Assembly: GCA_009787405.1 (NCBI GenBank)
Contig: WRGA01000123.1
Location: 8,369-72,368, forward strand
Direction of reading: 5' to 3'
Length of the DNA stretch: 64,000 bases
From: Candidatus Azobacteroides sp.
GTDB taxonomy: Bacteria > Bacteroidota > Bacteroidia > Bacteroidales > WRGA01
Shown here: positions 3,640-43,583 of the stretch, one piece after another
How positions within the stretch are numbered: the stretch's first letter is position 1
Layout: the number at the start of each line of letters is the position of its first letter
Program-made: the position numbers and the translations under genes
The notes under the pieces: generated by a model
The model's input: the letters and a program-made list of their open reading frames with translations, nothing else
Database searches by the model: none
Told to the model about the DNA's origin: nothing

Positions 3640-3684
3640 GTTAAGAATTAAGAGTTAAGAGTTAAGAGTTAAGAGTTAAGAGTT
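3640..3684. repeat. Heptamer array (G)TTAAGA x about 6
   Basis: gttaagaattaagagttaagagttaagagttaagagttaagagttg lies directly after the kinase stop codon. Confidence 0.9.
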
Positions 3685-3987: not shown

Positions 3988-4362
3988 ATGTATTGTCCAA
4001 ATTGTCAAAGTCAAAATGAAGAAAACGCACAATTCTGCAGAAACTGCGGCTCGAATTTGTGGTATACGCCAGATTTGAAACAAGATAACGATGTATTGCT
4101 GTTGGTCTATATTCTCATAGCATTTTTTGCCGCTGTTGTTCAATTCGTAATTCAAAGAGTTTTTTCAATATCTTATTTTGGGAAATCACCTTGGATATAT
4201 GTTATGGGGTTAATTTGGATTATATCCAATATCAGTTTAATTCTACCTGCATTAGCAATAAAAAACAAATCATTGAAAATTATCGGTATTATTTTTGCCG
4301 CGATAATTATAATCTATCACGCATACGGAAATATTGAATTTATGTTTAATAATTTTAAATGA
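3988..4362 (+). CDS. Zinc-ribbon domain membrane protein
   Basis: 124 aa. It has an N-terminal CPNC-x10-CRNC zinc ribbon followed by hydrophobic helices. The stop codon TGA (4360-4362) lies inside the terminal inverted repeat of the adjacent MITE. Confidence 0.6.
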   Translation: MYCPNCQSQNEENAQFCRNCGSNLWYTPDLKQDNDVLLLVYILIAFFAAVVQFVIQRVFSISYFGKSPWIYVMGLIWIISNISLILPALAIKNKSLKIIGIIFAAIIIIYHAYGNIEFMFNNFK

Positions 4363-4629
4363 TTATCGGATGTTATGCCCGGTTCTCCCTGCAGGGAGAG
4401 GCAAAAAATGTGTCAATGTTTCAAAATATTCGTCTTTTTTTGTCCCGCCGGGGACATTATATCGGTAGAAAAACACCACACCCCTTCACCCCTTGTCCCG
4501 CCGGGGACAAAATGTTTTCCCTAACGGGACGGAAAACAACATTTTTTAGAACGGATTTTTCAAAAAAACGAATATTACATTTTTACATCCTACTTGGGGG
4601 TAGATAGGTGCAACATCCGATAATCATTT
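4357..4629 (+). mobile_element. TIR-MITE copy 1 (273 bp, non-autonomous)
   Basis: A perfect 18-bp terminal inverted repeat: AAATGATTATCGGATGTT (4357-4374) and AACATCCGATAATCATTT (4612-4629). The interior is built from GTCCC-N4-GGGAC hairpins. Near-identical ends recur at 21331 and 24517. Confidence 0.85.
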
Positions 4630-4777: not shown

Positions 4778-4803
4778 TATTATTGACACTAATCATCGAA
4801 TAC

Positions 4804-4863
4804 AAACATAACACAAAACAGGATGAATCCATGAAAAGATTCATCCTGTTTTGTGTTATGTTT
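4804..4863 (-). terminator. Perfect 26-bp stem-loop immediately after nuoL
   Basis: aaacataacacaaaacaggatgaatc (4804-4829) pairs with gattcatcctgttttgtgttatgttt (4838-4863) around an 8-nt loop. It starts 8 nt downstream of the nuoL stop (4872-4874). Confidence 0.6.
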
Positions 4864-4871
4864 CGGCTTGA

Positions 4872-6776
4872 TTATAAGAAAATTGCCAGACTTGCAATGA
4901 TAACCGCACCCATGATAAATACCCAAACGTATTGTTGGACATTCCCGGATTGAAATTCTTTGATGGCTCCCGAAGTTTTGTATACCCAAAACGCCTGAAA
5001 ATTCATAAATCCGTCCACGACATGACGATCGAACCATGCAACCGGTTCACAAATACGTTTAAAAATGATACTTTTGGTAATGAACAGATATAATTCGTCG
5101 AAATAGAATTTATGATACGCCCATCGGTAAACGATGCCGAATCCGGATGCAACTTTATCCGAAAGATTACTCCCGCTTTTATAAATCCATGTCGCTATAC
5201 CTATCCCTGCCAATGCGATGCAAATGGAAGGAACGGCCACCGTCCAATCGATATGATGTCCGAATCCGATTCCGTCACTTGTAACTAATTCGGAAAACGG
5301 CACTAATCCGGCTACAATCGTCAATACCGCCAAGAACACAAGCGGACCAGTCATCACCGCTCCTACTTCGTGCGGCTGATGATGATAATGACCGGTTTTA
5401 CCCCAAAATATGTTGTAATATAATCGGAACATATAGAATGCCGTCAGGCCTGCAACCAAAAATTGACAGGCAAAAACTATTTTATCGGCATGTAAAGCGG
5501 CCACCATGATTTCGTCTTTACTGAAAAATCCCGAGAACGGAGGGATTCCGGCGATCGACAGACAAGCGATCAAAAACGTAATGTGCGTAACCGGCATAAA
5601 CTTCCGTAATCCGCCCATATCCTTCATCTCATTGCTGTGAACAGCATGGATGACGGCTCCCGCACACAGGAACAACAAGGCTTTGAAGAATGCGTGTGTA
5701 AATAAATGGAACATGGATGCCATGTATCCCAATCCGTTATGTCCGCCATAACCCGAAACACCCAAAGCAACAAGCATGTACGCAATTTGAGAAATGGTTG
5801 AAAAGGCCAGCACCCGCTTGATGTCTGTCTGCGTACAAGCCACAACAGCCGCAAACAAGGAGGTCGCCGCACCCACATAGGCAATCCCGTGAAGCACTCC
5901 CGGAGTGATAAAGTAATAAACCGGAAAAAATCGTGCCACCAAATATACTCCGGCCACCACCATCGTTGCGGCGTGAATAAGCGCCGAAACAGGCGTGGGG
6001 CCTTCCATGGCATCGGGTAACCAAATGTGCAGCGGAAGCATGGCCGATTTTCCGGCGCCTCCGATAAAAATCAATGCCATGGCCCAGGTAAATACCGATA
6101 ATCCCATAAAAGAAGGGCCGACCGAACTTGCGACCAACGCGGCATGATTATCGGTCAATGCGGTAAAATCAAACGTGTTGGTATAATACGACAGGAATAA
6201 AATTCCGATCAAAAAGCCCAAATCGGCAAAGCGGGTCACAATAAACGCTTTTTTTGCGGCAGCCACCGCCGAAGGTTTGGTATAGTAAAATCCGATGAGC
6301 GAGTAGGACGAAACTCCCACCAGTTCCCAGAAAATATACATCTGAAAGATATTGCCGGCAACCACCAATCCCAACATCGAGAAGGTAAACAAAGATAACA
6401 GAGCATAATAACGCTGAAATCCGGATTCACCCTTCATGTACCCTATACTGTAAATATGCACCATCAGCGATACAGTGGTGATCACCACCAGCATCATTAC
6501 CGAAATCGGATCCAAAAGGATTCCCAAATGCACCCTCAATGTTTCGGTAAACTTGAGCCAAAGCACGTCATAAGGTTGTATTTGCCGGAATACGTCGTCG
6601 ACTTTTCCCTCCACAAAAAAATACCGGTAAGCAATAAAATAGGACAAACAGGTAATGACAACCAACCCTAATGTCCCGAGCAGCCCCGCAACTTTAACAG
6701 ACATTTTATGTCCCGCCAATCCCAACAGCAAGAACATAAAAAAAGGTATCGCGATGATAAAAATACTACAATCCAT
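4872..6776 (-). CDS. nuoL: NADH-quinone oxidoreductase subunit L
   Basis: 634-aa polytopic membrane protein of the NuoL/Mrp antiporter-like family, placed after nuoK in the operon. Confidence 0.9.
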   Translation of the reverse strand: MDCSIFIIAIPFFMFLLLGLAGHKMSVKVAGLLGTLGLVVITCLSYFIAYRYFFVEGKVDDVFRQIQPYDVLWLKFTETLRVHLGILLDPISVMMLVVITTVSLMVHIYSIGYMKGESGFQRYYALLSLFTFSMLGLVVAGNIFQMYIFWELVGVSSYSLIGFYYTKPSAVAAAKKAFIVTRFADLGFLIGILFLSYYTNTFDFTALTDNHAALVASSVGPSFMGLSVFTWAMALIFIGGAGKSAMLPLHIWLPDAMEGPTPVSALIHAATMVVAGVYLVARFFPVYYFITPGVLHGIAYVGAATSLFAAVVACTQTDIKRVLAFSTISQIAYMLVALGVSGYGGHNGLGYMASMFHLFTHAFFKALLFLCAGAVIHAVHSNEMKDMGGLRKFMPVTHITFLIACLSIAGIPPFSGFFSKDEIMVAALHADKIVFACQFLVAGLTAFYMFRLYYNIFWGKTGHYHHQPHEVGAVMTGPLVFLAVLTIVAGLVPFSELVTSDGIGFGHHIDWTVAVPSICIALAGIGIATWIYKSGSNLSDKVASGFGIVYRWAYHKFYFDELYLFITKSIIFKRICEPVAWFDRHVVDGFMNFQAFWVYKTSGAIKEFQSGNVQQYVWVFIMGAVIIASLAIFL

Positions 6777-6785
6777 ATCTTTTTC

Positions 6786-6862
6786 AGTTAAGAGTTAAGA
6801 GTTAAGAGTTAAGAGTTGAAGTAATTTTAAACTTTTAACTCTTAATTCTTAACTCTTAACTT
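6786..6862. repeat. Heptamer-array hairpin (TTAAGAG arm / CTCTTAA arm) in the nuoK-nuoL spacer
   Basis: agttaagagttaagagttaagagttaagagttgaag..aacttttaactcttaattcttaactcttaac; the two arms are complementary. Confidence 0.85.
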
Positions 6863-12198: not shown

Positions 12199-12459
12199 AT
12201 TATTGAATGTAAATCAATCGTTTTTTCAAATAAGCGGCAGCTGATCCCACCGACATTTTCGACTTTTATGATGAAAAGACCAAAAACTAAATTTTGGCGC
12301 AAAAGTAGGGATTATATTGATAGATAAAAAGTATTCCGATAAATAGTTTTATATGGAGGTTTGTTAATAAATGTGAAAATAATAAAAGGGAGATAAGAAT
12401 TGCATATTTTTTTGTCAATATCATTGAAAATGATTCATTTAACGATGAATTTCCAAATG

Positions 12460-12725
12460 AAACCGTCCCGTCAGGGACAGAATACCGGTAGAAAAAATCG
12501 CCTCCTTCACCCAAAGCCCTTTGGGGAGATAAATGAATGGAATTATTAAAATGATTTGATACTGAATTTGACAAGAGATCTATTTTAAAAATCCGGAATA
12601 ATATTTTGTCCCTGACGGGACAAGGAGATGAGGTGCCGGATTTTTTCTACCAATATATTGTCCCTGGCGGGACAAAAAACGACATTCGCTTATCCCGTCA
12701 AGGGTATTATATTGGTAAAAAATTC
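12460..12725. repeat. Cluster of GTCCC-N4-GGGAC / ACCAATAT hairpin units (MITE debris)
   Basis: gtcccgtcagggac (12465-12478), gtccctgacgggac (12608-12621), gtccctggcgggac (12660-12673) and ctaccaatat / atattggta flanks. The MITE terminal repeats are absent. Confidence 0.8.
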
Positions 12726-13180
12726 GGTGCCTCTCTTTTTACCATGCCCTGTTGCCGCACGATAGCGGATGACTAAAAATTCTAAAACTAAAAATTACAA
12801 TATTTTTCAAGAGCTACAAAGCATAATCTGGCGAAAAAATACATTTTTGCCAAAAAAAATTGCGAATTTCAATTACTTTTATCCATAAAAGCAGTATTTT
12901 TGTCATCAGATGATTCATAAAAAATTTTTTGTGTGATATAGAGACAAAAAACGGTGCCAGTAAGCACTATTTGTTCCGATTTTTCGAAAACATAAGACAT
13001 GATTACGGATTCTTAACGGATAGTGTAATCCCCTGTCGACAGGGAGGGAGTATTCATAGCGCTTATCGAAATGCTTGTAGAACACCTCGCGGAAGGTTAA
13101 ATTGTCCATTTGGATGATGTGAGCGAAATGTATATACGATTTTATAGAAAGATATAATTATTTAAAACTATTTTTTTAGT

Positions 13181-14062
13181 ATGAAAAAAATTTTATTATA
13201 TATAGGTTATATGGCTGCTATTATTACAATTATATATGGTATAATAGACGCAATTAAAAATCAACGTTATCTGTTATCTATTGTTACAAATGTATGGACT
13301 TGGGTTGTAATCGTATTTATTATTTTGGCTATTATTTTGTATGGATTATACAAACACATATATAGATTAAATAAACGCATACAACAACTTGAAAATGAGG
13401 GTATTATACCAATAATTGAGGGTAATTTTATGGGTGGTATACATAAAAAACAAGAAAGAAGTAAATATATTAATAACAATATGTCTATAACATTATTGGA
13501 AAAAATCACAGAAATTAGTGGATTCGACGAGTGTAAAGCCTCAAAAACAATAATGAGAATACATGGGATATTATCAAGAGATTCGGATAACTTTAAGTTT
13601 ATTATTAGTAATGATTCAATCTCGCATTCTCGGAGTGATAAAATAGATATTACTGCTAAAGATATCAGTGATAGTACCCCTACCCCCCTTAATATCTCTA
13701 CATCTGATGAAAGTAATAACAAAGAGTATACTGTTTCTTATGAAAAAAGAAAAACAGCGGGTTCTCTTATTGCATTAGAAATTTCGTGGACTTGGCCTAA
13801 AATGTTTGATATAGACGGTGGCTATGTTACATTATCTACCTGTTATTCAAAAACAACAAAAAAAATCAAACATACATTTATTCCTCACAAAGAACAAACT
13901 TTTGATGAAATATCACTTTGGCAATATAAAATTTCAAAAACTCCTTCATTCTTGCGAAAAATAGCAAAAGAAAAAGATATTTTTTCTTACGAAATTGAAA
14001 ATCCAGATGAAATGACGGATTATATTATAATTTATAAAAACTTACAACACCTAATTAACTAA
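13181..14062 (+). CDS. Hypothetical membrane protein (2 N-terminal TM helices plus an unassigned ~200-aa C-terminal domain)
   Basis: 293 aa in AT-rich sequence. The TM segments are LLYIGYMAAIITIIYGIIDAI and WTWVVIVFIILAIILYGLY, followed by RLNKRIQQLENEG. I do not recognise a family. Confidence 0.6.
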   Translation: MKKILLYIGYMAAIITIIYGIIDAIKNQRYLLSIVTNVWTWVVIVFIILAIILYGLYKHIYRLNKRIQQLENEGIIPIIEGNFMGGIHKKQERSKYINNNMSITLLEKITEISGFDECKASKTIMRIHGILSRDSDNFKFIISNDSISHSRSDKIDITAKDISDSTPTPLNISTSDESNNKEYTVSYEKRKTAGSLIALEISWTWPKMFDIDGGYVTLSTCYSKTTKKIKHTFIPHKEQTFDEISLWQYKISKTPSFLRKIAKEKDIFSYEIENPDEMTDYIIIYKNLQHLIN

Positions 14063-14085
14063 ACACACTAAAATTTGAAAATACA

Positions 14086-15153
14086 ATGATTAACTTAAAA
14101 GATATGCTTGATGCGGATACTATTTTGAAAGAAAAATATCGTATTGAAAATTTGAATAATAGTATTATTACTTTAGAGTGTTTTATTAGCCAAGAATGTA
14201 ATCTGCAATGTAAACATTGCTATTTTGGTGATAAATTACCAAGCAAAAACCAATTATCGATTGATGAATGGATTGGCATCATAGAAAATGCAATACAAAA
14301 TGGGATTAAACATTTTCATTTTTCAGGTAAAGAACCATTATTAAATAATGATTTGTTTCCTATATTAAACTATATTTCGGAACGAAAGGATACATATGGA
14401 TTATTCTATGGCATTGTAAGTAATGGTGTAAGTGTTGAAAAACATATATATAAAAATCTTTTATTGACAAACTTAGATTATATTGAATTTAGTATTGAGG
14501 GGACAAAAGACATTAATGATTTTATTCGTGGAAATAATCATTTTGATAAATTGATAACAACATTAGGGGTTTTACTACCTAATGACAAAATCAGTACTTC
14601 AACTACTTTATCAGAAATAAATAAAGATTACTTTTTGGATTTAATGGACATATTGATAGAAAAGAAAGTAACAAAGATATTTGCTGCACCTATACATTTT
14701 GTAGGTAGTGCTACACAAAATTATATAAATATGATTTCACCTATTGATTTTTTAAACCTTATAGAAAATTCAATCAAAAAGATAATACAACTAAAACACA
14801 TAAACCATAAGATAGACTTAAAATTTTGTATCAGTGATTTTTATACGGAATATCTGATTAATAACGAGCATTTTATGTCAGAAAAATTAAAGTTGTATTT
14901 AGAAGATGGCGAACCTATATATTGGAATATTGATGGACATATCGTTGAAATTGTATTGCAGTTTGTTGATATGCCATTTGTAAAACAATTAATAATTACA
15001 GCTGACGGTTATATATTATCTAATGCCGATGATATAGATAAATACAATTATTATGAATCAAGTTTGGCTAATGCAAGAAATTGCGATTTTTCCAAAATAA
15101 TGAAATTAAGAAAAAAATATATTAATGATTACTTTACAAATTTAATTGTATAA
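14086..15153 (+). CDS. Radical SAM enzyme without a Cys-rich SPASM/twitch extension
   Basis: 355 aa, starting 23 nt after the previous gene. It has the CNLQCKHC (Cx3Cx2C) motif near residue 38, SGKEPLL (a GGE-like SAM motif), VSNG, EFSIEG and NDFIRG. The C-terminal ~130 aa contain only two Cys. Confidence 0.8.
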   Translation: MINLKDMLDADTILKEKYRIENLNNSIITLECFISQECNLQCKHCYFGDKLPSKNQLSIDEWIGIIENAIQNGIKHFHFSGKEPLLNNDLFPILNYISERKDTYGLFYGIVSNGVSVEKHIYKNLLLTNLDYIEFSIEGTKDINDFIRGNNHFDKLITTLGVLLPNDKISTSTTLSEINKDYFLDLMDILIEKKVTKIFAAPIHFVGSATQNYINMISPIDFLNLIENSIKKIIQLKHINHKIDLKFCISDFYTEYLINNEHFMSEKLKLYLEDGEPIYWNIDGHIVEIVLQFVDMPFVKQLIITADGYILSNADDIDKYNYYESSLANARNCDFSKIMKLRKKYINDYFTNLIV

Positions 15154-15156
15154 AAA

Positions 15157-15279
15157 ATGAAAAAATTAAAAATTAAAATACTGCCTGTCGAAGATGGTAG
15201 TGATTCAGGGAGTAAAGGGTTGTTCTTTTTCAATAAAAAGAAATTGGATAAAAGAAAAGAGAAACAACAAAAGAACTAA
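15157..15279 (+). CDS. Possible 40-codon micro-ORF 4 nt after the radical SAM gene
   Basis: Hand translation gives MKKLKIKILPVEDGSDSGSKGLFFFNKKKLDKRKEKQQKN*. It is too short for the ORF track. It may be a chance ORF in AT-rich DNA. Confidence 0.2.
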   Translation: MKKLKIKILPVEDGSDSGSKGLFFFNKKKLDKRKEKQQKN

Positions 15280-15323
15280 AAATATTTGGTTAGTAAATAA
15301 GACAAAGGGAAGTGCTTTGCCGT

Positions 15324-15356
15324 GGCGGACATGCTGTCCGTCCGCTTGTTTATTCA
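15324..15356 (+). terminator. Candidate terminator of the island cassette
   Basis: GCGGAC (15325-15330) pairs with GTCCGC (15340-15345) and is followed by TTGTTTATT. Confidence 0.35.
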
Positions 15357-15407
15357 AAAGGACTTGCAGTCCGACTCCGAACTCGGCATAGCGTCTTTCG
15401 TCATAGT

Positions 15408-15708
15408 CACCTAAGTCTGCCCCGATTTCGTGGTTAAGAAATCTAATCGGAATGATGTCAATCAGATAAAATCCTTGTTCGTGATAAAGTCCGCTTAGTG
15501 GCAAGGCAAGAATCTATATAACCAATTTCCCTTATTTTTGTACAAGGGTTTTGCCAAAAGACCCTGTCCGAAAAAGAAAGGAATAAGGGCGGCGGTTAGA
15601 TGTTATCCCTCTGCTACTAAACGTTCCTTTGTGAATAAGGGTTTCCTTATTCGTTCATATCCGGTAAATTGTATTTCTTAACCCCTAAATCGGGGCAGAC
15701 TCCGGTGG
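15408..15708. repeat. Inverted-repeat-bounded ~300-bp segment (candidate inverton or TIR element)
   Basis: The left repeat is cacctaAGTCTGCCCCGATTTcgtGGTTAAGAAAT (15408-15442). The right repeat is ATTTCTTAACCcctAAATCGGGGCAGACTccggtgg (15673-15708). The 15-bp and 11-bp blocks are perfectly complementary, and GCATAGC recurs just outside on both sides. Confidence 0.75.
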
Positions 15709-15791
15709 CTATGCGCAGCAGCGGGAGAACGGTACCGGGGTGTGGTTTTTCACCGGATATCGAAGGTAGTAGTATTTTATTCCCGTTATTT

Positions 15792-15869
15792 TCGCACAGA
15801 TTTCACGGATTTCACGGATTTTGAAAATATCCATTAAAAAAATCCGCGGAATCCGTGTAATCTGTGCGA
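15792..15869. repeat. CACGGATTT-type long hairpin
   Basis: tcgcacagatttcacggatttcacggatt (15792-15820) pairs with aatccgcggaatccgtgtaatctgtgcga (15841-15869). This is a stem of about 29 bp with a few mismatches and a 20-nt loop. Confidence 0.8.
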
Positions 15870-15884
15870 GGAATTATTCAATTT

Positions 15885-15915
15885 CTACCAATATTTTGTC
15901 CCTGACGGGAGACAA
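15885..15915. repeat. Solo CTACCAATAT-GTCCC-N4-GGGA hairpin unit
   Basis: The sequence reads ctaccaatattttgtccctgacgggagacaa. Confidence 0.7.
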
Positions 15916-15930
15916 AGGGATCATGGTGCT

Positions 15931-15972
15931 TATAAAACTAAAAAGACGAAACCTTCTAAAGTTTCGTCTTTT
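15931..15972 (-). terminator. Rho-independent-type terminator of the RRM gene
   Basis: aaagacgaaac (15942-15952) pairs with gtttcgtcttt (15961-15971). On the minus strand the stem is followed by TTAGTTTTATA. It lies about 70 nt downstream of the stop at 16040. Confidence 0.6.
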
Positions 15973-16039
15973 ATTCCGGTCGCCGAAAATCAAATCCGGC
16001 GTTTTAATATCCTGATTTCGCTTTCAGATTAAACAACAT

Positions 16040-16372
16040 TTACCAACGTTTACCGCCGCCGCTGCCGCCGCGTCCCGAATTATAACCGCCGCGATTGCCG
16101 CCGCCGCCGAAATTGTTACGGGGTCTTTCTTCTTTCGGACGGGCTTCGTTTACGGTAATTACTTTTCCGTCATATTCAGCTTGGTTTAACTCTTCAATCG
16201 CTTTTAAAGAAGCTGCCTGATCGGGCATCTCTACAAACCCGAAACCTCTTGAGCGTCCTGTCTCACGATCGGTTATCACTTTGGCGGAAGATACTTCGCC
16301 ATACTCTTCAAATACCTGCCTTAAATCTTCATCGCTTACTTTGAAGCTTAAATTAGAAACGTAAATGTTCAT
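16040..16372 (-). CDS. RRM-type RNA-binding protein with a Gly/Arg-rich tail
   Basis: 110 aa. It has RNP2 (IYVSNL), RNP1 (RGFGFVEM) and a C-terminal NFGGGGNRGGYNSGRGGSGGGKRW. Confidence 0.9.
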   Translation of the reverse strand: MNIYVSNLSFKVSDEDLRQVFEEYGEVSSAKVITDRETGRSRGFGFVEMPDQAASLKAIEELNQAEYDGKVITVNEARPKEERPRNNFGGGGNRGGYNSGRGGSGGGKRW

Positions 16373-16485
16373 TTTTTAATGAATTAAAATTTGTCTTGTG
16401 TTTCTCTTGAAAAATAAATGAACTAAAAAATAACATTATTTCTAATTGTCAAAGTTTGTCCGATTATAATTCTCAATAGAGTGGG

Positions 16486-16493
16486 CAAATGTA
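16486..16493 (-). promoter_or_regulatory. Candidate -7 promoter box (TAnnTTTG) for the RRM gene
   Basis: The minus strand reads TACATTTG, implying a leader of about 105 nt before the ATG at 16372. Confidence 0.3.
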
Positions 16494-16639
16494 CAAAAAA
16501 TATCCGGATATTCTAAAATCATTCAAAATTTTTCAAAAAAATTTATCTGAACCTGTTATCCGACCGGATATTCCCGAATACGATTGATTTTGCCGGTAAT
16601 GTCTTTTCCTGTATTTTCGTGCCTCCAAAAATTAGTGTT

Positions 16640-17656
16640 ATGCAGTTAGTCTGTTATCCATATACCTTACAACTGAAAAACGTTTTTACGTTGGCAAATT
16701 CGTCCCGAACGGTTACGCCGGTGATTTTAACGGAGATTCATCACGGTGATTTCACCGGATACGGAGAGGCTTCTCTCCCGCCCTATTTGGGCGAAACTCA
16801 GGAATCGGTCATGAAATTTCTGCAACGGATTGATTTAAGCGGCTTTTCATCGACGACTCTCATCGGGGAAATTATGCGGTATGTCGACGGCATTGACGTC
16901 GGAAATACCGCCGCAAAAGCTTCGGTCGATATCGCCATTCATGATTTGGCCGGAAAAATAAAAGGCAAACCTTGTTATGAATTATGGGGACTGAATCCCG
17001 AAGAAGCACCCGCAACATCGTTCACCATCGGAATCGATTCGCCGGAAGCGGTACGAAAGAAAGCGGAAGAGGCTTCCGCTTATTCGATGATCAAGGTCAA
17101 ACTCGGCAAGGAAACGGATAAAATGATGATCGAAACCATCCGTTCGGTCACGGATAAACCGATTTGCGTCGATGTCAATCAAGGATGGACGGATAAATAT
17201 TTTGCACTCGACATGTTGCATTGGTGTAAAAGTCAAAACGTTGTGTTTGTAGAACAACCGATGCCCGCGGAACAATGTCATGATATGGCCTGGTTGACGG
17301 CGCACAGTCCGATTCCGACCATCGCCGACGAATCGTTTCAACGCATCGGGGATTTGGCCGCCGTCAAAGACGTTTTTTCGGGAATCAACATCAAATTGAT
17401 GAAATGTACGGGTTTAAACGAGGCCGTTAAAATCATCGACCGGGCAAAAAAAATGAATCTGAAAATCATGCTCGGTTGTATGACGGAAACTTCCTGCGCC
17501 ATATCAGCTGCTTCGCAAATCGCATCTTCAGCCGATTACATCGATCTGGACGGAAATCTGTTGATCACCAACGACTGTTTCAAAGGGGCAAAAGTGCAAT
17601 CGGGAAAAGTCATTCCGGCTGCTCTTCCGGGAATCGGCGTCATCAAATGCTGTTAA
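16640..17656 (+). CDS. Dipeptide epimerase (L-Ala-D/L-Glu epimerase type), enolase superfamily
   Basis: The start is trimmed to MQLV. Catalytic and metal motifs appear in order: IKVKLG, VDVNQGW, VEQP, ADES, NIKLMKC. Confidence 0.8.
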   Translation: MQLVCYPYTLQLKNVFTLANSSRTVTPVILTEIHHGDFTGYGEASLPPYLGETQESVMKFLQRIDLSGFSSTTLIGEIMRYVDGIDVGNTAAKASVDIAIHDLAGKIKGKPCYELWGLNPEEAPATSFTIGIDSPEAVRKKAEEASAYSMIKVKLGKETDKMMIETIRSVTDKPICVDVNQGWTDKYFALDMLHWCKSQNVVFVEQPMPAEQCHDMAWLTAHSPIPTIADESFQRIGDLAAVKDVFSGINIKLMKCTGLNEAVKIIDRAKKMNLKIMLGCMTETSCAISAASQIASSADYIDLDGNLLITNDCFKGAKVQSGKVIPAALPGIGVIKCC

Positions 17657-17770
17657 AAATGTTTGATTTATTTTATTTATCCGAAGGGTTTTACTACCTT
17701 TACGCCCCTGTTTTGTAAGAGCAAAAACCGGATCACGGTATCATCCGGATCTAAAAACAATTGTTTCTGC

Positions 17771-18577
17771 ATGAAAATCAAAGTCTTATTGTATTTTATT
17801 CCTCTGTTATTATTGAACGTATCTTGCGGTGAATATAACAAGGTACTGAAAATAACAGACCCTGTTCAGAAATACAGCTACGCCAAAAAGTATTTTTCCG
17901 AAAAAAAGTATGATCGTTCCGCCACATTATTGACCGAATTGGTTCCTCTTTTCAAAGGAACGGACAAAGCGGAAGAATCGTTGTACTTGTTGGCGCAAAG
18001 TTATTACGGACAACGGGATTATACTACGGCAAGCCAATATTTCACCTCCTATTATAATACTTATCCCAAGGGGGAATATGCCGAATTATCCCGCTTTTAC
18101 AACGGATACGGCTTTTATTTGGAATCGCCTGCGTCGGAGTTGGATCAATCAACGACTTACAGGGCGCTCAGCGAGCTGCAATCTTTTTTGGAATATTATC
18201 CGGGCAGCGAACGGAAGCAGGAAGCGCTGGATGTGATTTTTTCTTTGCAGGAAAAATTGGCCAAGAAGGCTTTGATCAATTCACAATTGTATTATAATCT
18301 GGGTAATTACGGAGGAAACAATTACTTGAGTTGTGTGATCACTGCCGAAAATGCGCTGAAAGATTATCCGTACACCAAATATAAAGAAGATTTCCGCATT
18401 CTTATTTTACGTTCCAAATACGAACAGGCTTTTCATAGTGTTGCCGCAAAAGAACAAGAACGTTTCCGGGAAGTCGTCGACGAGTATTATGTATATATCG
18501 GAGATTTCCCGGTCGGAAAATACAGGAAAGAGGCCGAACAAATTTTATCGAGAACATTAAGCAAAATAAAAAGTTAA
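17771..18577 (+). CDS. bamD: Outer membrane protein assembly factor BamD (TPR lipoprotein)
   Basis: The start is trimmed to MKIKVLLYFIPLLLLNVSCGEY, which carries a lipobox. It has TPR-like repeats and sits next to the omega-like gene, as is usual in Bacteroidota. Confidence 0.8.
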   Translation: MKIKVLLYFIPLLLLNVSCGEYNKVLKITDPVQKYSYAKKYFSEKKYDRSATLLTELVPLFKGTDKAEESLYLLAQSYYGQRDYTTASQYFTSYYNTYPKGEYAELSRFYNGYGFYLESPASELDQSTTYRALSELQSFLEYYPGSERKQEALDVIFSLQEKLAKKALINSQLYYNLGNYGGNNYLSCVITAENALKDYPYTKYKEDFRILILRSKYEQAFHSVAAKEQERFREVVDEYYVYIGDFPVGKYRKEAEQILSRTLSKIKS

Positions 18578-18591
18578 AATAGATTTACAGT

Positions 18592-18924
18592 ATGGATTAC
18601 AGAAAAACCAATGCTCCGGCAAGTACCATAACGAGAGATATGTTGGATATATCGAAAGATACGGGAAACGTTTACGAAACGGTGCGCATCATCAGTAAAC
18701 GGGCAAATCAAATCAGTGAGGCCATTAAAAACGATTTAGGCAAAAAACTGCAAGATTTTGCTTCTTATTCCGACAATTTGGAAGAAATATTCGAAAACAG
18801 AGAGCAAATAGAGATTTCCCGTTATTACGAGAAATTACCCAAACCGACTCTTATTGCCGCTCAAGAATATCTCGACGGAAAAATTTACTACAAAAATCCG
18901 GCAAAAGAAAAAGATAAATTATAA
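18592..18924 (+). CDS. rpoZ: RNA polymerase omega (Rpb6-like) subunit
   Basis: 110 aa. NVYETVRIISKRANQI matches the omega n-Y-E-x-V-x4-K-R-A-x-Q motif. Confidence 0.65.
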   Translation: MDYRKTNAPASTITRDMLDISKDTGNVYETVRIISKRANQISEAIKNDLGKKLQDFASYSDNLEEIFENREQIEISRYYEKLPKPTLIAAQEYLDGKIYYKNPAKEKDKL

Positions 18925-18928
18925 TATT

Positions 18929-18999
18929 GAGCGTCAAGAGACAAAAGCCAAGGCTTACGAGGATTTATGATCGAAGTCTTGGCGCACGGCTCTTGCTTC
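18929..18999. repeat. Imperfect long hairpin with 7-nt periodic arms (diverged heptamer family) after rpoZ
   Basis: gccaaggctt (18947-18956) pairs with aagtcttggc (18974-18983), and caagag (18935-18940) pairs with ctcttg (18990-18995). Confidence 0.5.
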
Positions 19000-19021
19000 C
19001 CGATTCTTAAAAACAAAAGAT

Positions 19022-19477
19022 ATGCTTCAACGGATTCAAACCTTATATTTGTTCGGCATTGTTATATGCATGATTGTTTTGTTTTTTATCCCGGTGTTAA
19101 ATATTGACGTCACGTCTCAAATCACCGGGAATTATTATTTATTCGATAATGTCGACAGTCTGAATTTTATTCCCGATTATTTACAACACACTTTACTGAT
19201 ATTGGTTGCAGATATTTTGGTTCTTTCGTTAATCATTATTTTTTGTTACAAAAAACGCTCTCTTCAAATTAAACTGTGTTTTTTAAATGCCGTTTTTATC
19301 TTGTTGTTTTATGCCTGCATCGTTTATTTCAGAGTGATCATTAATCAAAATCAATCAGTCATCCACTTGCATGCGGGTGCGGTTCTGCCTGTCATTGCTT
19401 TCATTTTTAATTATTTGGCCGTGTATTTTATCAAAAAAGATGAAGCATTGATAAAATCCATGGACAGAATACGATAA
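19022..19477 (+). CDS. DUF4293-like membrane protein
   Basis: 151 aa with an MLQRIQTLYLF N-terminus and four TM helices, in the usual position after bamD-rpoZ. Confidence 0.55.
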   Translation: MLQRIQTLYLFGIVICMIVLFFIPVLNIDVTSQITGNYYLFDNVDSLNFIPDYLQHTLLILVADILVLSLIIIFCYKKRSLQIKLCFLNAVFILLFYACIVYFRVIINQNQSVIHLHAGAVLPVIAFIFNYLAVYFIKKDEALIKSMDRIR

Positions 19478-19493
19478 ACCGGGCTTGAATTCG

Positions 19494-19581
19494 GTAGTGT
19501 CATGAATTGACTTGATTTGAGAGATAAACACTACGATAACCGGCGTCTTATAATAAACTGTCAGTTAATTTATGACACTAC
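19494..19581. mobile_element. MITE-90 copy 1 (ad hoc name): ~88-bp palindromic element between convergent genes
   Basis: The ends are GTAGTGTCATGAATTGAC and GTCAGTTAATTTATGACACTAC. A related copy lies at 39392-39479. Confidence 0.7.
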
Positions 19582-19589
19582 GGGTTGTT

Positions 19590-20282
19590 TTATTTTTTCA
19601 ACGGCAATAAATAGGACAGCGTGATGTAAATGTCTTGATTGGAAGATTTGGCATAATAATCTTTTTTGTGATTGTTGAAAACATCTCCCAATCCGTAATA
19701 GTAACGGCTTTCCAACAAAAAACTTCCGATACCGGTGCGAAACTCAACCCCCATTCCTCCGGCAATGCCGTAATCGAATGTTTTGTCGATCGGAACACCG
19801 TAATATCCGGCTCCGTTGGTGCCCGGAGCATCATCCAAAGAAAAATTATAATTTTCCTTGTCTCCGATCAAAAATCGGGCTACCGGCCCCATATCAATAA
19901 AGAACCGGTATTTGTTTCCCCAATAAATATGTGTCATAAACGGAAATTCAAAATACCGGATCGAACGGGAATATGCTAATGTGCCGGTGTCGGCAAGGTT
20001 ATAATCGGCAAAATTTTCTTTCCACCCGACAACACAATAACTCGGCTCCAACAAAAAACCCAAATGATTTTCGGTGACATACAGGAGTTTTACCCCGAAT
20101 ATTCCTCCGGTCCTGTAGCTTTCTTTCATTTTAGGGCTGAATGATACTTTTGATAAAGTGGTTCCGACAAAAGGGCCTATCGATAATTCGGGAATGAATC
20201 TTTGCTCTTGTGCAAAGCTATTTGCACAAACAACCAAACTCAACCATATAACAAAAACAGTGTTTTTAAAAATAGCGTTCAT
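19590..20282 (-). CDS. Outer-membrane beta-barrel protein (porin/PorT-like family)
   Basis: 230 aa with a signal peptide, alternating beta-strand patterns and aromatic-rich strands (ESRYYYGLGDVF..). Confidence 0.6.
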   Translation of the reverse strand: MNAIFKNTVFVIWLSLVVCANSFAQEQRFIPELSIGPFVGTTLSKVSFSPKMKESYRTGGIFGVKLLYVTENHLGFLLEPSYCVVGWKENFADYNLADTGTLAYSRSIRYFEFPFMTHIYWGNKYRFFIDMGPVARFLIGDKENYNFSLDDAPGTNGAGYYGVPIDKTFDYGIAGGMGVEFRTGIGSFLLESRYYYGLGDVFNNHKKDYYAKSSNQDIYITLSYLLPLKK

Positions 20283-20287
20283 CCTTT

Positions 20288-20352
20288 GAGAGTTGAAAAT
20301 TGAAAGTTGAAAATTAAAAGTGAAAATGACTCATATATTTTATTTTCACTTT
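20288..20352. repeat. Heptamer-type array (AGTTGAAA / ATTGAAA) with a terminal hairpin
   Basis: gagagttgaaaattgaaagttgaaaattaaaagtgaaaat..attttcacttt. The 11-bp stem aaagtgaaaat / attttcacttt overlaps the stop codon of the next gene. Confidence 0.7.
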
Positions 20353-20996
20353 CCGGTTTCAGCTTGATCCGATTTATATACCAATTTCATTTCTTTTATC
20401 AAATAGGTATCATCAATCGAATAAAATTGTTTTCCTTTTACCCGGACTCCGGGTCTGACCAATGTTTTGCCCGAGGCTTTATTCATACAAACGGCAATCA
20501 ATTCGGTACAATATAATGATTCATCACTGCCTGCATCAAAGCTCAGATCGAAAGGTGTCTTTTTCCGTACATACCCCAAGGCTTTTTCAACGATTTTATC
20601 CCGCACGGATTGAGGAACATCCGGCCGATAAACAGCCCAGGGAAATGCATCTTCCATAAAGACGGGCAACGGATCTTCTTTCACCCCGCCGATTCCCGTA
20701 AATTCATCAGCTTCGGAATGTATCACAAATATCGAGTCATGTCTTATCTCTATGATCCCGGCATGGGAATATATTTTTTCCTTTTCCGAAAAATCCCTGA
20801 AATATCTCGAAAAATATCCGTTCCCATACCGGTAAATAATATCTCCGTTCAAAACAAAATCAAATGTCAAAGATTCGGTTTTTGTTTCAGCATCTTGTTT
20901 TACTCCGATACCGCCGCAAGCATTGCACAAGATCAAAAAACAAAAAAGAAACGGCGTTTTACTTATTCGACTCCATGTTGACTTTCCAATCGCCAT
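20346..20996 (-). CDS. YiiX/YaeF-like permuted papain-fold (NlpC/P60-related) lipoprotein
   Basis: 216 aa with a lipobox (FLILCNACGG). The SLYCTELI motif contains the catalytic-type Cys, and a His lies upstream (VIHSEAD). Confidence 0.5.
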   Translation of the reverse strand: MAIGKSTWSRISKTPFLFCFLILCNACGGIGVKQDAETKTESLTFDFVLNGDIIYRYGNGYFSRYFRDFSEKEKIYSHAGIIEIRHDSIFVIHSEADEFTGIGGVKEDPLPVFMEDAFPWAVYRPDVPQSVRDKIVEKALGYVRKKTPFDLSFDAGSDESLYCTELIAVCMNKASGKTLVRPGVRVKGKQFYSIDDTYLIKEMKLVYKSDQAETGK

Positions 20997-21330: not shown

Positions 21331-21589
21331 AAATGATTATCGGATGTTATGCCCGACTCTCCCTGCAGGGAGATGCAAAAAATGTGTCAATATTTCAAAA
21401 TATTCGTCTTTTTTTGTCCCGCCGGGGACAAAATGTTTTCTTTTTCACATTACGTCCCCGGCGGGACTTTGGACACCGGAGAAATTCTCCTTTCTACCAA
21501 TATGTTGTCCCCGGCGGGACAAAAAAACGAATAGTACATTTTTACATCCCACTTGGGGGATAGATAGGTGCAACATCCGATAATCATTT
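21331..21589 (+). mobile_element. TIR-MITE copy 2 (259 bp)
   Basis: It has the same 18-bp terminal repeats as copy 1 (AAATGATTATCGGATGTT .. AACATCCGATAATCATTT) and the same orientation of the internal CAAAAAATGTGTCAAT..TTCAAAATATTCG segment. Confidence 0.85.
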
Positions 21590-24516: not shown

Positions 24517-24864
24517 AAATGATTATCGGATGTTATACACGGTTATTCCTACAGGCGGGATATAAAAAATGTATCAATGTTTCAAAAAAATATTCGTTCT
24601 TTTTTGTCCCGTCGGGGACATTATATCGGTAAAAAAACACCACCCCTCCACTTTTTGTCCCGTCAGGGACAAAATGTTTTCCTTCCCGCATCACGTCCCT
24701 GACGGGACTTTGGTCTCCGGAGGAATTCTCCTTTCTACCAATATGTTGTCCCTGACGGGACGGAAAACAACATTTTTCGTCCCGGATTTTTCAAAAATAA
24801 CGAATATTACACTTTTTACACCCCACCTGCGGGGATAGGTAGGTACAACATTCGATAATCATTT
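24517..24864 (+). mobile_element. TIR-MITE copy 3 (348 bp; carries extra internal hairpin modules)
   Basis: The left end is AAATGATTATCGGATGTT and the right end AACATTCGATAATCATTT (1 mismatch). Internally it combines the modules found separately in copies 1 and 2. It begins 7 bp after Rep-135 copy C. Confidence 0.8.
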
Positions 24865-36111: not shown

Positions 36112-36236
36112 AATAAATATTTTGTCCCTGACTAGACAAGGTAAAAGGGAGAACCCGTACTTTCTATCAATATAATACCCCTGACGAGATAAGCGAATGT
36201 CGTTTTTTGTCCCGTCAGGGACAAAATATTGGTAGA
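36112..36236. repeat. Cluster of GTCCC-N4-GGGAC / ATATTGGTAG hairpin units
   Basis: aatattttgtccctgactagacaagg .. tttgtcccgtcagggacaaaatattggtagaa. Confidence 0.75.
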
Positions 36237-36417: not shown

Positions 36418-37584
36418 TTATTTTGCAATTTTCACTGTTTCCGTTTGACCTCCGGCGATTATTTTGGCGATGTAAATACCGTTAGCCAAGTTCGACAAAT
36501 CGATCGTCGACACATTTTGTCTCGAAATAAGAAGACGACCATTGACATCGTAAATTTGGGCTGTACCGACAACATTCAAATAAAGCGTATTGTTTGAATA
36601 ATAATAACTATCGGTAATCGACGGTATATTGATCCCTGTAGATTGTGATAAAAATTTAATATTATCAAGATAAAAATTCGAATTGTTATAACTAAAACCT
36701 AACGCCATATCAAATGTATTTAATGCTAATAACCCATCATCAGATAATAACTCGGATAAAGGAATTTCTTTCAACAACCATGTTCCGGTTGCATCATTCA
36801 AAATCAAATTATTAACAGAGACAGGGGGGTCAACAGTTGTCGAGAATGAAGTGCCTTCTGGCCCGATGTAACAATTAACACGCTTATATTGATTTTGATC
36901 ACCGAAACCCGGCATAAAATAAATATTAAACGTTATTTTTTCGATATCAGCCAATGTTTTTCCATCCGGCAATTCAACTGTAAATCTAGGATAAGCATTA
37001 TAATTCGTTACAATGACGTGCAGGGATTTTTCGCTGGCCCCAGTCGGATCAGGTTCAACAGTTGCCACAACATCGTTATTAGCCCATCTATACGCACTCG
37101 GATACGCATCATCAATCTCATCCCCCTCAAAATCAAGAGATGTCGATGGAACCAACGGAATAACAGCCGCACTTACGACTATACTGACAAGGGTTGCTCC
37201 GTTATATACATTAATGGTGATGCCACTTTGACTATACTGGTCAACATAATATACTCCGTTTTCTTTCGCATAATCCTTAAAATCGGCAATCGTAAATTCA
37301 TAAACATTCTCTGCTCCTTCCGATGAAGCGGCTTTGCAAACAAAATCATAAGGTGCCGCATTACTTCCGGAATAATTAATCGGCTTGATTGTTCCTATAC
37401 CCCAACCCGGAGCGACACTGGAATTAGCGTTACTGACACTCAACGTAACGGTTACCTTTTGGTTATCTGCATAATTTTCGAAGTCGCTCAATTGAACATT
37501 GCCATATTGATCAAAAGGAATATCTGCTGCAAAAACACCTGCACTCAAAAATATGGCACATACGACAAGTAATGTCTTTTTCAT
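36418..37584 (-). CDS. Secreted protein with one CBM-like module and a T9SS C-terminal sorting domain
   Basis: 388 aa with a signal peptide. The module LDFEGDE..HVIVTNYNAYPRFTVELPDGKTLADIEKITF..NFYLDNIKF is paralogous to the modules of 37857..39080. The C-terminal domain (CTD) ends IYDVNGRLL..IDLSNLANGIYIAKIIAGGQTETVKIAK. Confidence 0.7.
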   Translation of the reverse strand: MKKTLLVVCAIFLSAGVFAADIPFDQYGNVQLSDFENYADNQKVTVTLSVSNANSSVAPGWGIGTIKPINYSGSNAAPYDFVCKAASSEGAENVYEFTIADFKDYAKENGVYYVDQYSQSGITINVYNGATLVSIVVSAAVIPLVPSTSLDFEGDEIDDAYPSAYRWANNDVVATVEPDPTGASEKSLHVIVTNYNAYPRFTVELPDGKTLADIEKITFNIYFMPGFGDQNQYKRVNCYIGPEGTSFSTTVDPPVSVNNLILNDATGTWLLKEIPLSELLSDDGLLALNTFDMALGFSYNNSNFYLDNIKFLSQSTGINIPSITDSYYYSNNTLYLNVVGTAQIYDVNGRLLISRQNVSTIDLSNLANGIYIAKIIAGGQTETVKIAK

Positions 37585-37714
37585 AATAATTAATTTTAAA
37601 AATGAATAATATAAATGACGGAAAGAAAAATAAATAATCTATAGCGAGATAAGTTACGAAATTCAACCGGCTTGGAACAAATAATGATTATACGTTATTT
37701 ATTATTCCGACCTG

Positions 37715-37859
37715 AACAAAGGTCGCAAAAACCGGTTTATTTTTTTAAACGCTGGATCGCAAAGACAGAAAGACGGGAAGTTTTAATTCTGTGCCTTTGT
37801 GTCTTTGCTTCTTCGCGGCTGAAAATAACAGACATTAAATGCTGTCTGTCATGTACTTA
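37715..37859 (+). repeat. Rep-135 copy D
   Basis: GGTCGCAAAAACCGGTTTATTTTTTTAAACGCTGGATCGCAAAGAC..GGGAAGTTTTAATTCTGTG..CTTCGCGGCTGAAAATAACAGACATTAAATGCTG..CATGTACTTA. The last 3 nt form the stop codon of the next gene. Confidence 0.8.
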
Positions 37860-39080
37860 TTTTGCAATTTTCACTGTTTCCGTTTGACCTCCGGCAATTA
37901 TTTTGGCAATGTAAATACCGTTAGTCAAATTCGTCAAATCTACCGTCGATACATTTTTGACCGCAACCAGTAATCGACCATTCGTATCATAAACATATAC
38001 TTCTTCGGCTTGTGCATTTCCTACGTAAAGGATGTTATCGGAAAAGTAACCGGTTTTGCCGACGGATATTTCCGGGACGCCTGTATTTTCTTTGGCTCTC
38101 AACGTCACGTTGTCCAGGTAATAATTTCCGGCTTCGTGAGACATTCCGAATGCCAACGTAACCGGATTGCCTGATGTTGCGCCTGCTAAGGAATACGTTT
38201 TGGTCACCCATGTATTCGCCGAACCTTGAGCCGGATAACCGGCATCAACATAAAATTGACTTCCGTCAATATAAATGTTCATTTGTTTGTATTCCTGTTG
38301 AACAGTATATAAATCAAACGAAAATTCATCATAATCGGCCAAGGTTTTCCCATCCGGAAGCGTTACCGCCAAACTCAAGAAAGCATCGTAATCCGTTGTT
38401 ACAATATGCGCACATTGTCCGTGCGTTCCGGCAGTCGATGGGTCGTCTACTACAGTCGCCGTTATCTTTCCGTCGCCGTTTTTTGAAATAACGGGAAGAC
38501 TTTCTCCAAGTGTGTAACCTTCAAAATCGAGGGTTAAATAGCGATCGGGGGAAATTACTTCTTCCAACCGGACATTGGTAATATAATAATTTCCGGCTTC
38601 GTGAGATATTCCAAGCGCTAATGTAAACGTGTTATCCGCTGTAGTAGTAGCACCTTCCAAGGAATATGATTTGGCATTCCATGTATTTGCCGAACCTTGA
38701 GAAGGATAACCGGCATCGACATAAAATTGTTTTCCGTCAATATAAATATTCATTTGTTTGTATTCTGTCGCAGAAGTATACATATCAAACTTTAATGCTC
38801 CGTAATCGGCAATGGTTTTTCCTGCCGGCAACGTTACATCCAACTGCCAAAAAGCATCGTAATCCGTTGTTACAATATGCGCACAATTTCCCTTTGTTCC
38901 GGCAGTCGATGGATCGGCTGCTACCGTTACCGTTATTTTACCATCGCCGTTTTTTGAGAAAACGGACAGGGCATCACCTATGTTTTTGCCGGCCAGGCCG
39001 TCAATCACCACTTCGGCAGCAGAAATGTTTGCTGTAAAGGCAAATGCTGCCATAAAAAAAATTGAGAATAGCTTTTTCAT
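37857..39080 (-). CDS. Secreted protein with two tandem CBM-like modules and a T9SS C-terminal sorting domain
   Basis: 407 aa. Residues ~21-178 and ~179-335 are clear duplicates (SKNGDGKIT.TV..DPSTAGT.G.CAHIVTTDYDAF..L.VTLP.GKT.ADY..F.FD.YT...EYKQMNIYIDG.QFYVDAGYP.QGSANTW). The CTD tail is identical to that of 36418..37584. Confidence 0.7.
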   Translation of the reverse strand: MKKLFSIFFMAAFAFTANISAAEVVIDGLAGKNIGDALSVFSKNGDGKITVTVAADPSTAGTKGNCAHIVTTDYDAFWQLDVTLPAGKTIADYGALKFDMYTSATEYKQMNIYIDGKQFYVDAGYPSQGSANTWNAKSYSLEGATTTADNTFTLALGISHEAGNYYITNVRLEEVISPDRYLTLDFEGYTLGESLPVISKNGDGKITATVVDDPSTAGTHGQCAHIVTTDYDAFLSLAVTLPDGKTLADYDEFSFDLYTVQQEYKQMNIYIDGSQFYVDAGYPAQGSANTWVTKTYSLAGATSGNPVTLAFGMSHEAGNYYLDNVTLRAKENTGVPEISVGKTGYFSDNILYVGNAQAEEVYVYDTNGRLLVAVKNVSTVDLTNLTNGIYIAKIIAGGQTETVKIAK

Positions 39081-39113
39081 AAAGATTAATTTTTAAAAAG
39101 TGAATACTTGTTT

Positions 39114-39386
39114 TTACTTGATTATTTTAATCGTTTTTATTTCGTTTCCGGCGATAATTTTGGCAATATAAACTCCCGGATAAATGTTTGATAAATCAAT
39201 TGACGAAATCTGTTGTTTTTTCAGGAACAGATGACCGTTAATGCCATAGATTTCGATGGTGACGGGGCATGCCGAATAAAGTGTATTCCCGGAAAAACAA
39301 ACATTATCCGCATCAAAAGATGTGATCGAAACCGTCGGGCCTTGATTTGTTTTTGCGACAAGCGTAATATTGTCTAAATAATAAAT
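39114..39386 (-). pseudogene. 5'-truncated remnant of a T9SS-tailed paralogue (only the ...YYLDNITL module end plus CTD remain)
   Basis: Hand translation of the minus strand gives ..YYLDNITLVAKTNQGPTVSITSFDADNVCFSGNTLYSACPVTIEIYGINGHLFLKKQQISSIDLSNIYPGVYIAKIIAGNEIKTIKIIK*. Homology ends exactly where MITE-90 copy 2 begins. There is no start codon. Confidence 0.7.
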
Positions 39387-39391
39387 TACAT

Positions 39392-39479
39392 GATAGTGTA
39401 TGAATTGACTGATTTAAGAGATAAATTCACTTACAACCAACGTTTTATGATAATCCATCAACTCATTTATGATATTACC
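39392..39479. mobile_element. MITE-90 copy 2, abutting the truncated paralogue
   Basis: gatagtgtatgaattgactgatttaagagataaa..catttatgatattacc aligns along its length with 19494-19581. Confidence 0.65.
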
Positions 39480-39670
39480 TTCGAACAAGTGTCGTCATGA
39501 ATAATAAGAAAATGAATCTTATTTTTCCATAATGGATAGGCTTATAAAAGTTATATAAAGGTAAAGTAATAAGCTCAAATACAGTGGTTTATTTGTAACA
39601 ATTGTTTTGTTTGCGGTAACATGTCTATTCCGGCAGAATCTATTTCTCTATGCCGGGTTACATCGCTCAC

Positions 39671-39743
39671 CCGTAAAAGTTGTGGAGTTAAAAAGTGCAT
39701 AGCGTTTATGCGTTTTCAACCTCACACTCATAACTTTTACAGG
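39671..39743. repeat. GTAAAAGTTGTG-base hairpin, copy 1
   Basis: ccgtaaaagttgtggagttaaaaa .. ttttcaacctcacactcataacttttacagg. The base of the stem is shared with 59335-59395, and the apical part differs but stays complementary. Confidence 0.6.
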
Positions 39744-39857
39744 TGATCTGCTTTCAATCTTAACCTCGAAAACGGGCAGGTTCCGGCAACTGTAGATTGT
39801 ATCTACGGTAAATAAAGACAAATAAACGAGGCCGGCCCGGTGACATCCGAAACTCGT

Positions 39858-40235
39858 CTACTTGTTTACTTTCACATAATAAATCTGTTCGTTTGTGGTT
39901 ATTTTTACCAAATAAACGCCGGTTTTTAATCCGGAAATATCCAAAGAGGAAGAAATATTATTCCGGGAGAGCAGCAAATTCCCGCCGGCATCGAAAACAG
40001 ATATATTGTCTGCGGATGTATTTCCCATGTACAGCACGCTGTCGGAATAATAAAAGTTGTTGTCCGCCCGGAATGCCGATTTCCCGGAAATATCCGGTAT
40101 TCTTTTTAATCTAATGTTGTCGAGATAGAAAAATCCGTTCCCGGTGTTAAATTCCAAATAAAGATCAAAAACGGTTGAAAAATGATACCGGATTTTTCTA
40201 CCAATATAACGTCCCTGCAGGCCGGAAAACAACAT
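39858..40235 (-). pseudogene. 5'-truncated remnant of a T9SS-tailed paralogue
   Basis: Only ..DLYLEFNTGNGFFYLDNIRLKRIP.. plus the CTD (VFDAGGNLLL..LDISGLKTGVYLVKITTNEQIYYVKVNK) is paralogue-like. The N-terminal 15-20 codons of the ORF are read from a CTACCAATAT/GTCCC repeat unit (40198-40228). Confidence 0.65.
40198..40228. repeat. Solo CTACCAATAT-GTCCC unit at the truncation point of the pseudogene
   Basis: The sequence reads ctaccaatataacgtccctgcaggccggaaa. Confidence 0.65.
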
Positions 40236-40359
40236 TTTTTAGATTGTAATTTTCAAAAAAAACGATTAATAAAAATAATATTAAAAAAAGCTTGCGAAAT
40301 GATTTCCGCAAGCTTTACACACAAAACACACAAAATACAGGATAAATTTTTACGACAGT

Positions 40360-41976: not shown

Positions 41977-41984
41977 GTGTTTAT

Positions 41985-43550: not shown

Positions 43551-43583
43551 GACAATAAATTTTAAAATTAATACTATTGATCA

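Follow-up and report, generated by a model that had tools for sequence, protein, structure and literature searches.

A 312-bp imperfect palindrome of two inverted repeat-unit copies, probably a low-copy MITE-like element, between converging genes of Candidatus Azobacteroides

The stretch of Candidatus Azobacteroides DNA analysed here, 64 kb long and called the window throughout, has a Pfam content of housekeeping genes, a T9SS-cargo cluster and a GH30 polysaccharide-utilisation locus. The products of a gene run at 36418-45968 carry C-terminal sorting domains of the T9SS type (PKD, GH30 plus ricin lectin), and within the spacer at 39081-39857 an apparent degraded Por_Secre_tail-like remnant can be made out by eye. 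The element that is the subject of this report lies elsewhere, in an intergenic region reached from the left through a nuo operon on the minus strand and then an AT-rich island (GC 0.25-0.29; 0.269) with three genes on the plus strand. These genes encode a 293-aa protein that belongs to no Pfam family (13181-14062), a radical SAM enzyme (14086-15153, Pfam scan) and a 40-aa peptide called as a gene at 15157-15279 and starting MKKLKIKILPVEDGSDSGSKGLFFFNKK. The cassette looks like a RiPP precursor plus maturase, and a predicted terminator-like hairpin at 15324-15342 (plus strand) closes its radical-SAM/peptide part. An orphan 64-aa ORF on the minus strand (12915-13109), again with no Pfam family, lies at the island's left end and may be the fragment of a gene. 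To the right of the element, the gene of an RRM-domain protein is found on the minus strand at 16040-16372 (Pfam scan), with its predicted terminator at 15941-15972 on the same strand, and beyond it follow a dipeptide epimerase gene and bamD. With the cassette on the plus strand and the RRM gene on the minus strand, the element is situated between two converging transcription units.

The nucleotide homology of the cassette (~13202-15289) extends at 80-83% identity to a Prevotellaceae MAG (L119) and to two short contigs, and in the MAG the cassette is part of a defence or mobile island that also carries an integrase fragment, DUF3987, Dcm and Z1. Only about eight homologues of the cassette (13181-15289) are present in a collection of 5.8 billion protein clusters, and the C-terminus of its peptide differs by a frameshift in an A-run. 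The homology with L119, L120 and L121 stops at 15289, more than 100 bp short of the element, and for this reason a tie between the element and the radical-SAM cassette was rejected. The GC content of the element is 0.413, compared with a window mean of 0.412 and 0.269 in the island. In the closest syntenic relative (L109; epimerase 73% identical in amino acids, RRM gene 82.6% identical in nucleotides) the interval from nuoA to the RRM gene holds a methyltransferase and nothing resembling window positions 12383-16039, so the element is absent there; a scan of a genome collection with the neighbouring epimerase returned only relatives of 51-59% identity, which were uninformative for synteny. The end of the shared homology, the GC content and the absence from L109 together indicate that the element does not belong to the acquired cassette and is not conserved at this locus either. 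An earlier note on this DNA had placed it at the right border of the AT-rich island; it does lie there, but the link is one of position only, since GC content and the homology end set the element apart.

The same note had described 35-bp inverted repeats, and the repeats are real. A repeat finder places two arms of 46 nt each at 15402-15447 (plus strand, the best-kept block) and 15668-15713 (minus strand), 85% complementary and 220 nt apart, the right arm being delimited also by a three-copy alignment and an identity profile. The sequence motifs that had been reported recur where they were said to be: AGTCTGCCCCGATTT at 15414-15428 on the plus strand and 15687-15701 on the minus strand, GGTTAAGAAAT at 15432-15442 with its reverse complement at 15673-15683, and, outside the 35-bp arms, GCATAGC at 15387-15393 and GCTATGC at 15708-15714. 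Two hairpins, CCCTTATT...AATAAGGG at 15529-15589 and GAATAAGG-GTTT-CCTTATTC at 15633-15652, were likewise located as described. The longest exact core common to both arms is 15 nt, and the 15-mer AGTCTGCCCCGATTT has no more than two matches in the 64-kb window even when two mismatches are allowed. The left arm includes a short dyad, CCCCGATTTCG(T)GG. When the region 15300-15800 was compared with its own reverse complement, the best local score was 28.5, against 10.8 +/- 2.0 with a maximum of 18 in 300 dinucleotide shuffles (z about 9). The predicted fold of 15385-15725 is one long imperfect rod with a free energy of -129.1 kcal/mol on the plus strand (z -7.8) and -122 kcal/mol on the minus strand (z -9.2). 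The inverted-repeat feature is therefore far above chance.

What the arms enclose is not unrelated DNA, and on this point the earlier description does not stand. A single-sequence nhmmer comparison aligns positions 20-335 of the element with its reverse complement (E = 4e-22). A self-match of nearly full length means that the element does not consist of two arms around foreign DNA, but of two diverged copies of one unit, and the whole is a diverged palindrome. The unit is ~155 bp long, and its two copies, joined head to head, meet at about 15555: the left one occupies 15395-15540 on the minus strand, the right one 15567-15716 on the plus strand, and between them, at 15541-15566, lies the centre of symmetry with the CAAGGGTTTTGCCAAAAGACCCTG hairpin, as seen in the sequence, the folds and a three-way alignment. 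The 35-bp inverted repeats are the well-kept outer ends of these two copies. The local hairpin at 15633-15652 belongs to the right copy only; the homologous stretches of the left copy and of the third copy described below do not form it.

The third copy of the unit was found in a metagenome contig (L137, JGI24699J35502_10919796), where it occupies positions 511-679, solitary and without an inverted partner. Used as an nhmmer query, this unit matches the left copy with E 2.8e-6 and the right copy with E 9.4e-12, and blastn aligns the right copy with positions 532-671 of the contig at 69% identity over 151 nt (E 2e-7). A model built from the three copies gives E 3.6e-40 for the left copy, yet that copy was among the sequences from which the model was built. 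The contig is 1.1 kb long, carries no genes and consists of repeats only; among these are copies, at 85-89% identity, of a family present in the window and described below as MITE-A, which indicates a related organism but a different locus. The unit copy is nested within a further element, whose ends are inverted repeats of ~90 nt (418-509 and 777-866). That surrounding element (418-866) has arms about 90% complementary with 267 bp between them, and its fold reaches -231 kcal/mol (z -14.7).

The left and right copies are 62% identical to each other, and 62% and 55% identical, respectively, to the copy in L137. Since the halves have diverged from each other as far as they have from L137, the pair is either old or made of two independent copies. 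Divergence is uneven along the unit: the terminal 40 nt are 72-88% identical across the three copies and the interior 43-54%. Conserved ends with a variable interior are the pattern expected if a protein recognises the ends. The three-copy homology stops exactly at the outer CTATG/CCATG, and it is this stop that sets the boundaries of the element at 15402 and 15713, a length of 312 bp. An assembly artefact was considered and rejected, since the 127-kb contig continues on both sides of the element and the two halves share only 62% identity.

Several other repeats surround the element. A separate hairpin repeat of ~115 bp at 15769-15883 has 31-nt arms (15792-15822 and 15839-15869) and 9-mers of the CACGGATTT type, and two copies of it, at 92% and 86% identity, were found by blastn in another metagenome locus (L122). 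The hairpin at 15790-15870 gave spurious below-threshold miRNA matches in Rfam. To the right of this unit, at about 15897, is a degenerate palindrome of the GTCCC-N4-GGGAC type, and exact palindromes of this type occur 13 times in the window, where none is expected. The exact sites are at 4442-4508, 12465-12673, 21416-21520, 24606-24761 and 36209-36222, mostly within TTTTGTCCCnnnnGGGACAAAAT. Some lie inside MITE-A and others stand by themselves, as at the left edge of the AT-rich island, where the orphan 64-aa ORF lies between them and the cassette. MITE-A itself has three copies in the window (4357-4629, 21331-21589 and 24517-24864), recognised by their terminal inverted repeats (TIRs) and by clean 6-bp target duplications (AATTTT, AAAACT and TAATAT). 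Its ends read TAAATGATTATCGGATGTT, its imperfect TIRs are 29-57 nt long, its internal GTCCC-N4-GGGAC modules vary in number, and further copies at 83-89% identity are present in several JGI24699J35502 contigs. MITE-A is a true, active-looking MITE family of this genome. The hairpin unit, the palindromes and MITE-A, taken together, indicate that the genome accumulates non-autonomous palindromic elements. Two other hairpins were seen in the window, one of tandem AGTTAAG heptamers between nuo genes (6786-6861) and one with 41-nt arms downstream of nuoL (4789-4878).

Further copies of the unit were sought. DNA of related organisms was sampled by a metagenome scan with the conserved MITE-A end, which recovered L137 and, in all, ~108 kb of loci, ~48 kb of them from the sample that holds copies of the window's repeats. 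The unit was searched for with the three-copy HMM. The one additional candidate is a borderline, possibly degenerate solo terminal arm at 39757-39791 (plus strand), which matches positions 124-159 of the three-copy HMM with E 0.0044 and whose pairwise score is not above that of shuffles. With this sole exception, the earlier statement that no second copy of the inverted repeat exists in the window holds, and no further unit copies were found in 15 kb of additional contig or in the ~108 kb of metagenome loci. The arm pattern had no matches in one scan of JGI metagenomes, and a degenerate three-copy consensus pattern had none in viral contigs. In the viral contigs the 15-mer had 103 matches, all single and unpaired, about the number we estimated from the size of the collection. 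Blastn of the element against plasmid and phage collections gave no match, nor did its six-frame translations match called proteins in the 5.8 billion protein clusters; the longest ORF inside it is 47 aa, and a tRNA/tmRNA scan found none. The copies known so far are thus three, at two unrelated loci and in two metagenomes: two in the element and one in L137, besides the borderline fragment.

From these observations the element is probably a low-copy MITE-like or foldback palindromic repeat that codes for nothing. The earlier note had offered a new TIR element as one of two alternatives, and this is the one that gains support, from the dispersed unit in L137, the conserved ends, the lack of coding capacity and the other repeats around. 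The size, TIRs and stable stem-loop published for prokaryotic MITEs fit the element (PMC10969869). At 312 bp it is under ~500 bp and carries no transposase gene, its 46-nt arms are 85% complementary, and it lies in a convergent spacer with predicted folds of -129.1 and -122 kcal/mol. Prokaryotic MITEs have typical TIRs of ~4-30 bp (PMC10969869), shorter than the arms here. Around the boundaries (15380-15415 and 15699-15734) only asymmetric 3-5-nt matches at chance level were found and no target-site duplication; such direct repeats decay in older MITEs (PMC10969869). No insertion sequence with matching ends, and no transposase, was found in the window or the retrieved loci. The Bacteroidales offer a precedent in BrickBuilt of Porphyromonas gingivalis (PMC4596501).

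Like ERIC/IRU, QMITE2 of Coxiella, and MITE239 and BrickBuilt of P. gingivalis, the element is shorter than 500 bp, non-coding and intergenic and has TIRs, and it shares with them a very stable stem-loop in the transcript, apparently more than one dispersed copy, modular reuse of a sub-unit and other repeat families alongside. Unlike them it lacks a target-site duplication and a known cognate insertion sequence, has been observed in very few copies, has arms as long as 46 nt, and has one homologue that is a single unit without an inverted partner. MITE-A, in the same genome, is similar in size (260-350 bp), has long imperfect TIRs, is intergenic and is found in JGI24699J35502 contigs; it differs in its 6-bp target duplications, its copy number of at least three per 64 kb and its GTCCC-N4-GGGAC modules, and the two have no sequence in common. 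The element also recalls REP and BIME sequences, which are palindromic and intergenic, often occupy the space where two genes converge, and may incidentally affect termination or the stability of mRNA. REPs, however, are units of 20-40 nt, high in copy number and linked to RAYT transposases, whereas the element is built of a 155-bp unit in low copy, and no transposase or recombinase families were found by Pfam among the scanned window proteins.

The solitary unit in L137 is one observation that weighs against a MITE, as the pair could stem from a local inverted duplication and not from transposition of a 312-bp MITE. A one-off duplication of this kind, acting on a conserved sequence that is not mobile, such as a protein-binding or regulatory site present at a few loci per genome, is an unlikely alternative that nevertheless accounts for several findings: the missing target-site duplication, the low copy number, the solitary state of the L137 copy, and the short dyad of the terminal block, which could be an operator-like site. 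Against it, the halves differ from each other (62%) as much as they do from L137 (62% and 55%), every known copy lies in gene-free DNA dense in repeats and none beside a recurring gene, and the unit is missing from the syntenic site in L109.

The other alternative in the earlier note was a phase-variable inverton. On such a reading an invertase acting in trans would recombine the two arms and flip a promoter at 15533-15540, so that it fired antisense into the RRM gene or the radical-SAM cassette. The element does share with the Mpi- or Tsr-dependent, fin-type promoter invertons of Bacteroidales, as detected by PhaseFinder, an intergenic segment of 200-300 bp flanked by inverted repeats; here ~220 bp lie between the repeats in a Bacteroidales genome, one TAnnTTTG match falls inside, and the size agrees with a set of invertons identified by PhaseFinder, more than 75% of which are shorter than 300 bases (PMC11602134). 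Against this, what lies between the arms is a palindrome of that same ~155-bp unit, and flipping it would largely regenerate the same sequence. The box TATTTTTG is present at 15533-15540 on the plus strand, as the note had it, but its exact match to the Bacteroidota -7 promoter element carries no meaning. In the window TAnnTTTG is found 84 times, where 65 would be expected, a density of about one per 760 bp, and the box is present in one of the three copies, the homologous positions reading CTTTTTCG in the right copy and TATTTTTC in L137; it was judged a chance match.

Nor is there anything for such a promoter to drive. The note had seen no obvious downstream target gene, rightly so, as the neighbouring units run towards the element from both sides and stop at terminators (15324-15342 on the plus strand, 15972-15941 on the minus strand), leaving no target in either orientation; transcription from 15533 would run towards the 3' end of the convergent gene or, when flipped, towards that of the cassette. 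It had also reported no recombinase gene in the window, which Pfam scans of its ~45 proteins bear out: no recombinase or transposase is among them or among the gene calls of the 15 kb of additional contig, and about 79 kb of contig contain no gene for an invertase. The arms are imperfect, with an exact core of only 15 nt, and the L137 homologue has one arm only. In all, the element departs from promoter invertons in its symmetric interior, its imperfect arms and its lack of a conserved promoter, a target gene and a nearby invertase.

Two retrieved contigs cover the element; both are one and the same ENA record (ERZ27257293, k141_174308), in the reference orientation. The Logan k=31 assembly of SRR5248864 matches exactly over 12671-15373 and 15793-20372 and does not span the 420 bp of 15374-15792, and a break near the element is what an inverton might produce. 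By our reasoning, however, branching of a k=31 graph would be expected near 15428 and 15687, not at 15373 and 15793. Logan contig ends were seen at 3667, 12671, 15373, 15793 and 59492, mostly inside or beside repeats. Since Logan also breaks at 12671 and 59492, in or by repeats, the breaks fit a repeat or coverage problem. With a palindromic interior, a box at chance level, converging neighbours and no invertase in ~79 kb, we consider an inverton very unlikely.

A bolder reading would hold that the ~40-nt terminal block, with its short dyad, is the recognition site of a recombinase or transposase in an Azobacteroides-like lineage, and that the pair is an active substrate for inversion or excision, or else the source of a ~310-nt regulatory hairpin RNA between the RRM gene and the cassette. 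We regard this as highly improbable.

Least probable of all is a gene for a large structured non-coding RNA of ~310-330 nt, closed by the long stem. The predicted folds are indeed very stable (z -7.8 and -9.2), the interior folds well even alone (z -4.4 and -3.6), and a weak terminator-like hairpin is located on the minus strand just past the element (15372-15360). The two strands, however, fold about equally, as a DNA palindrome does. Rfam gave no match for the element, be it at gathering thresholds across the window or even at E <= 10 over 15200-16050, which speaks against a structured RNA. RNAalifold on the three copies yielded -10.4 and -7.2 kcal/mol with one and zero compensatory pairs, a comparison of low power with three sequences. 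The internal hairpins are not conserved, the one at 15633-15652 being absent from the other copies, the L137 copy has no partner for the closing stem, and the element is absent at the syntenic site in L109. An integron attC site was dropped because such a site is much shorter than the element, the core sites misfit and no integrase is present, and a retron, omega-RNA or bridge-RNA because no RT, TnpB/IscB or IS110 gene is nearby.

For the MITE-like repeat, a plausible course of events can be proposed. The conserved ends, with their CCCGA-N2-3-TCGGG-like dyad, would be bound by a transposase or recombinase whose gene lies elsewhere, and this enzyme may have placed or duplicated the unit here. 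The element would have no switch function and would be selfish, non-coding DNA that has settled where convergent genes leave a permissive spacer. Transcription from either neighbour would turn it into an imperfect hairpin of ~310 nt (-129 or -122 kcal/mol), which may incidentally block read-through or stabilise 3' ends, as do the hairpins of REP, ERIC and other MITEs (PMC10969869).

The unit is a previously undescribed low-copy repeat of a well-known kind of element, and its importance outside annotation is small. It illustrates that, in Bacteroidales MAGs rich in repeats, an intergenic segment of 200-300 bp flanked by inverted repeats can be a palindromic repeat instead of an inverton, a point that matters for inverton prediction done without reads. 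In this genome, the several repeat families fragment short-read assemblies at such sites.
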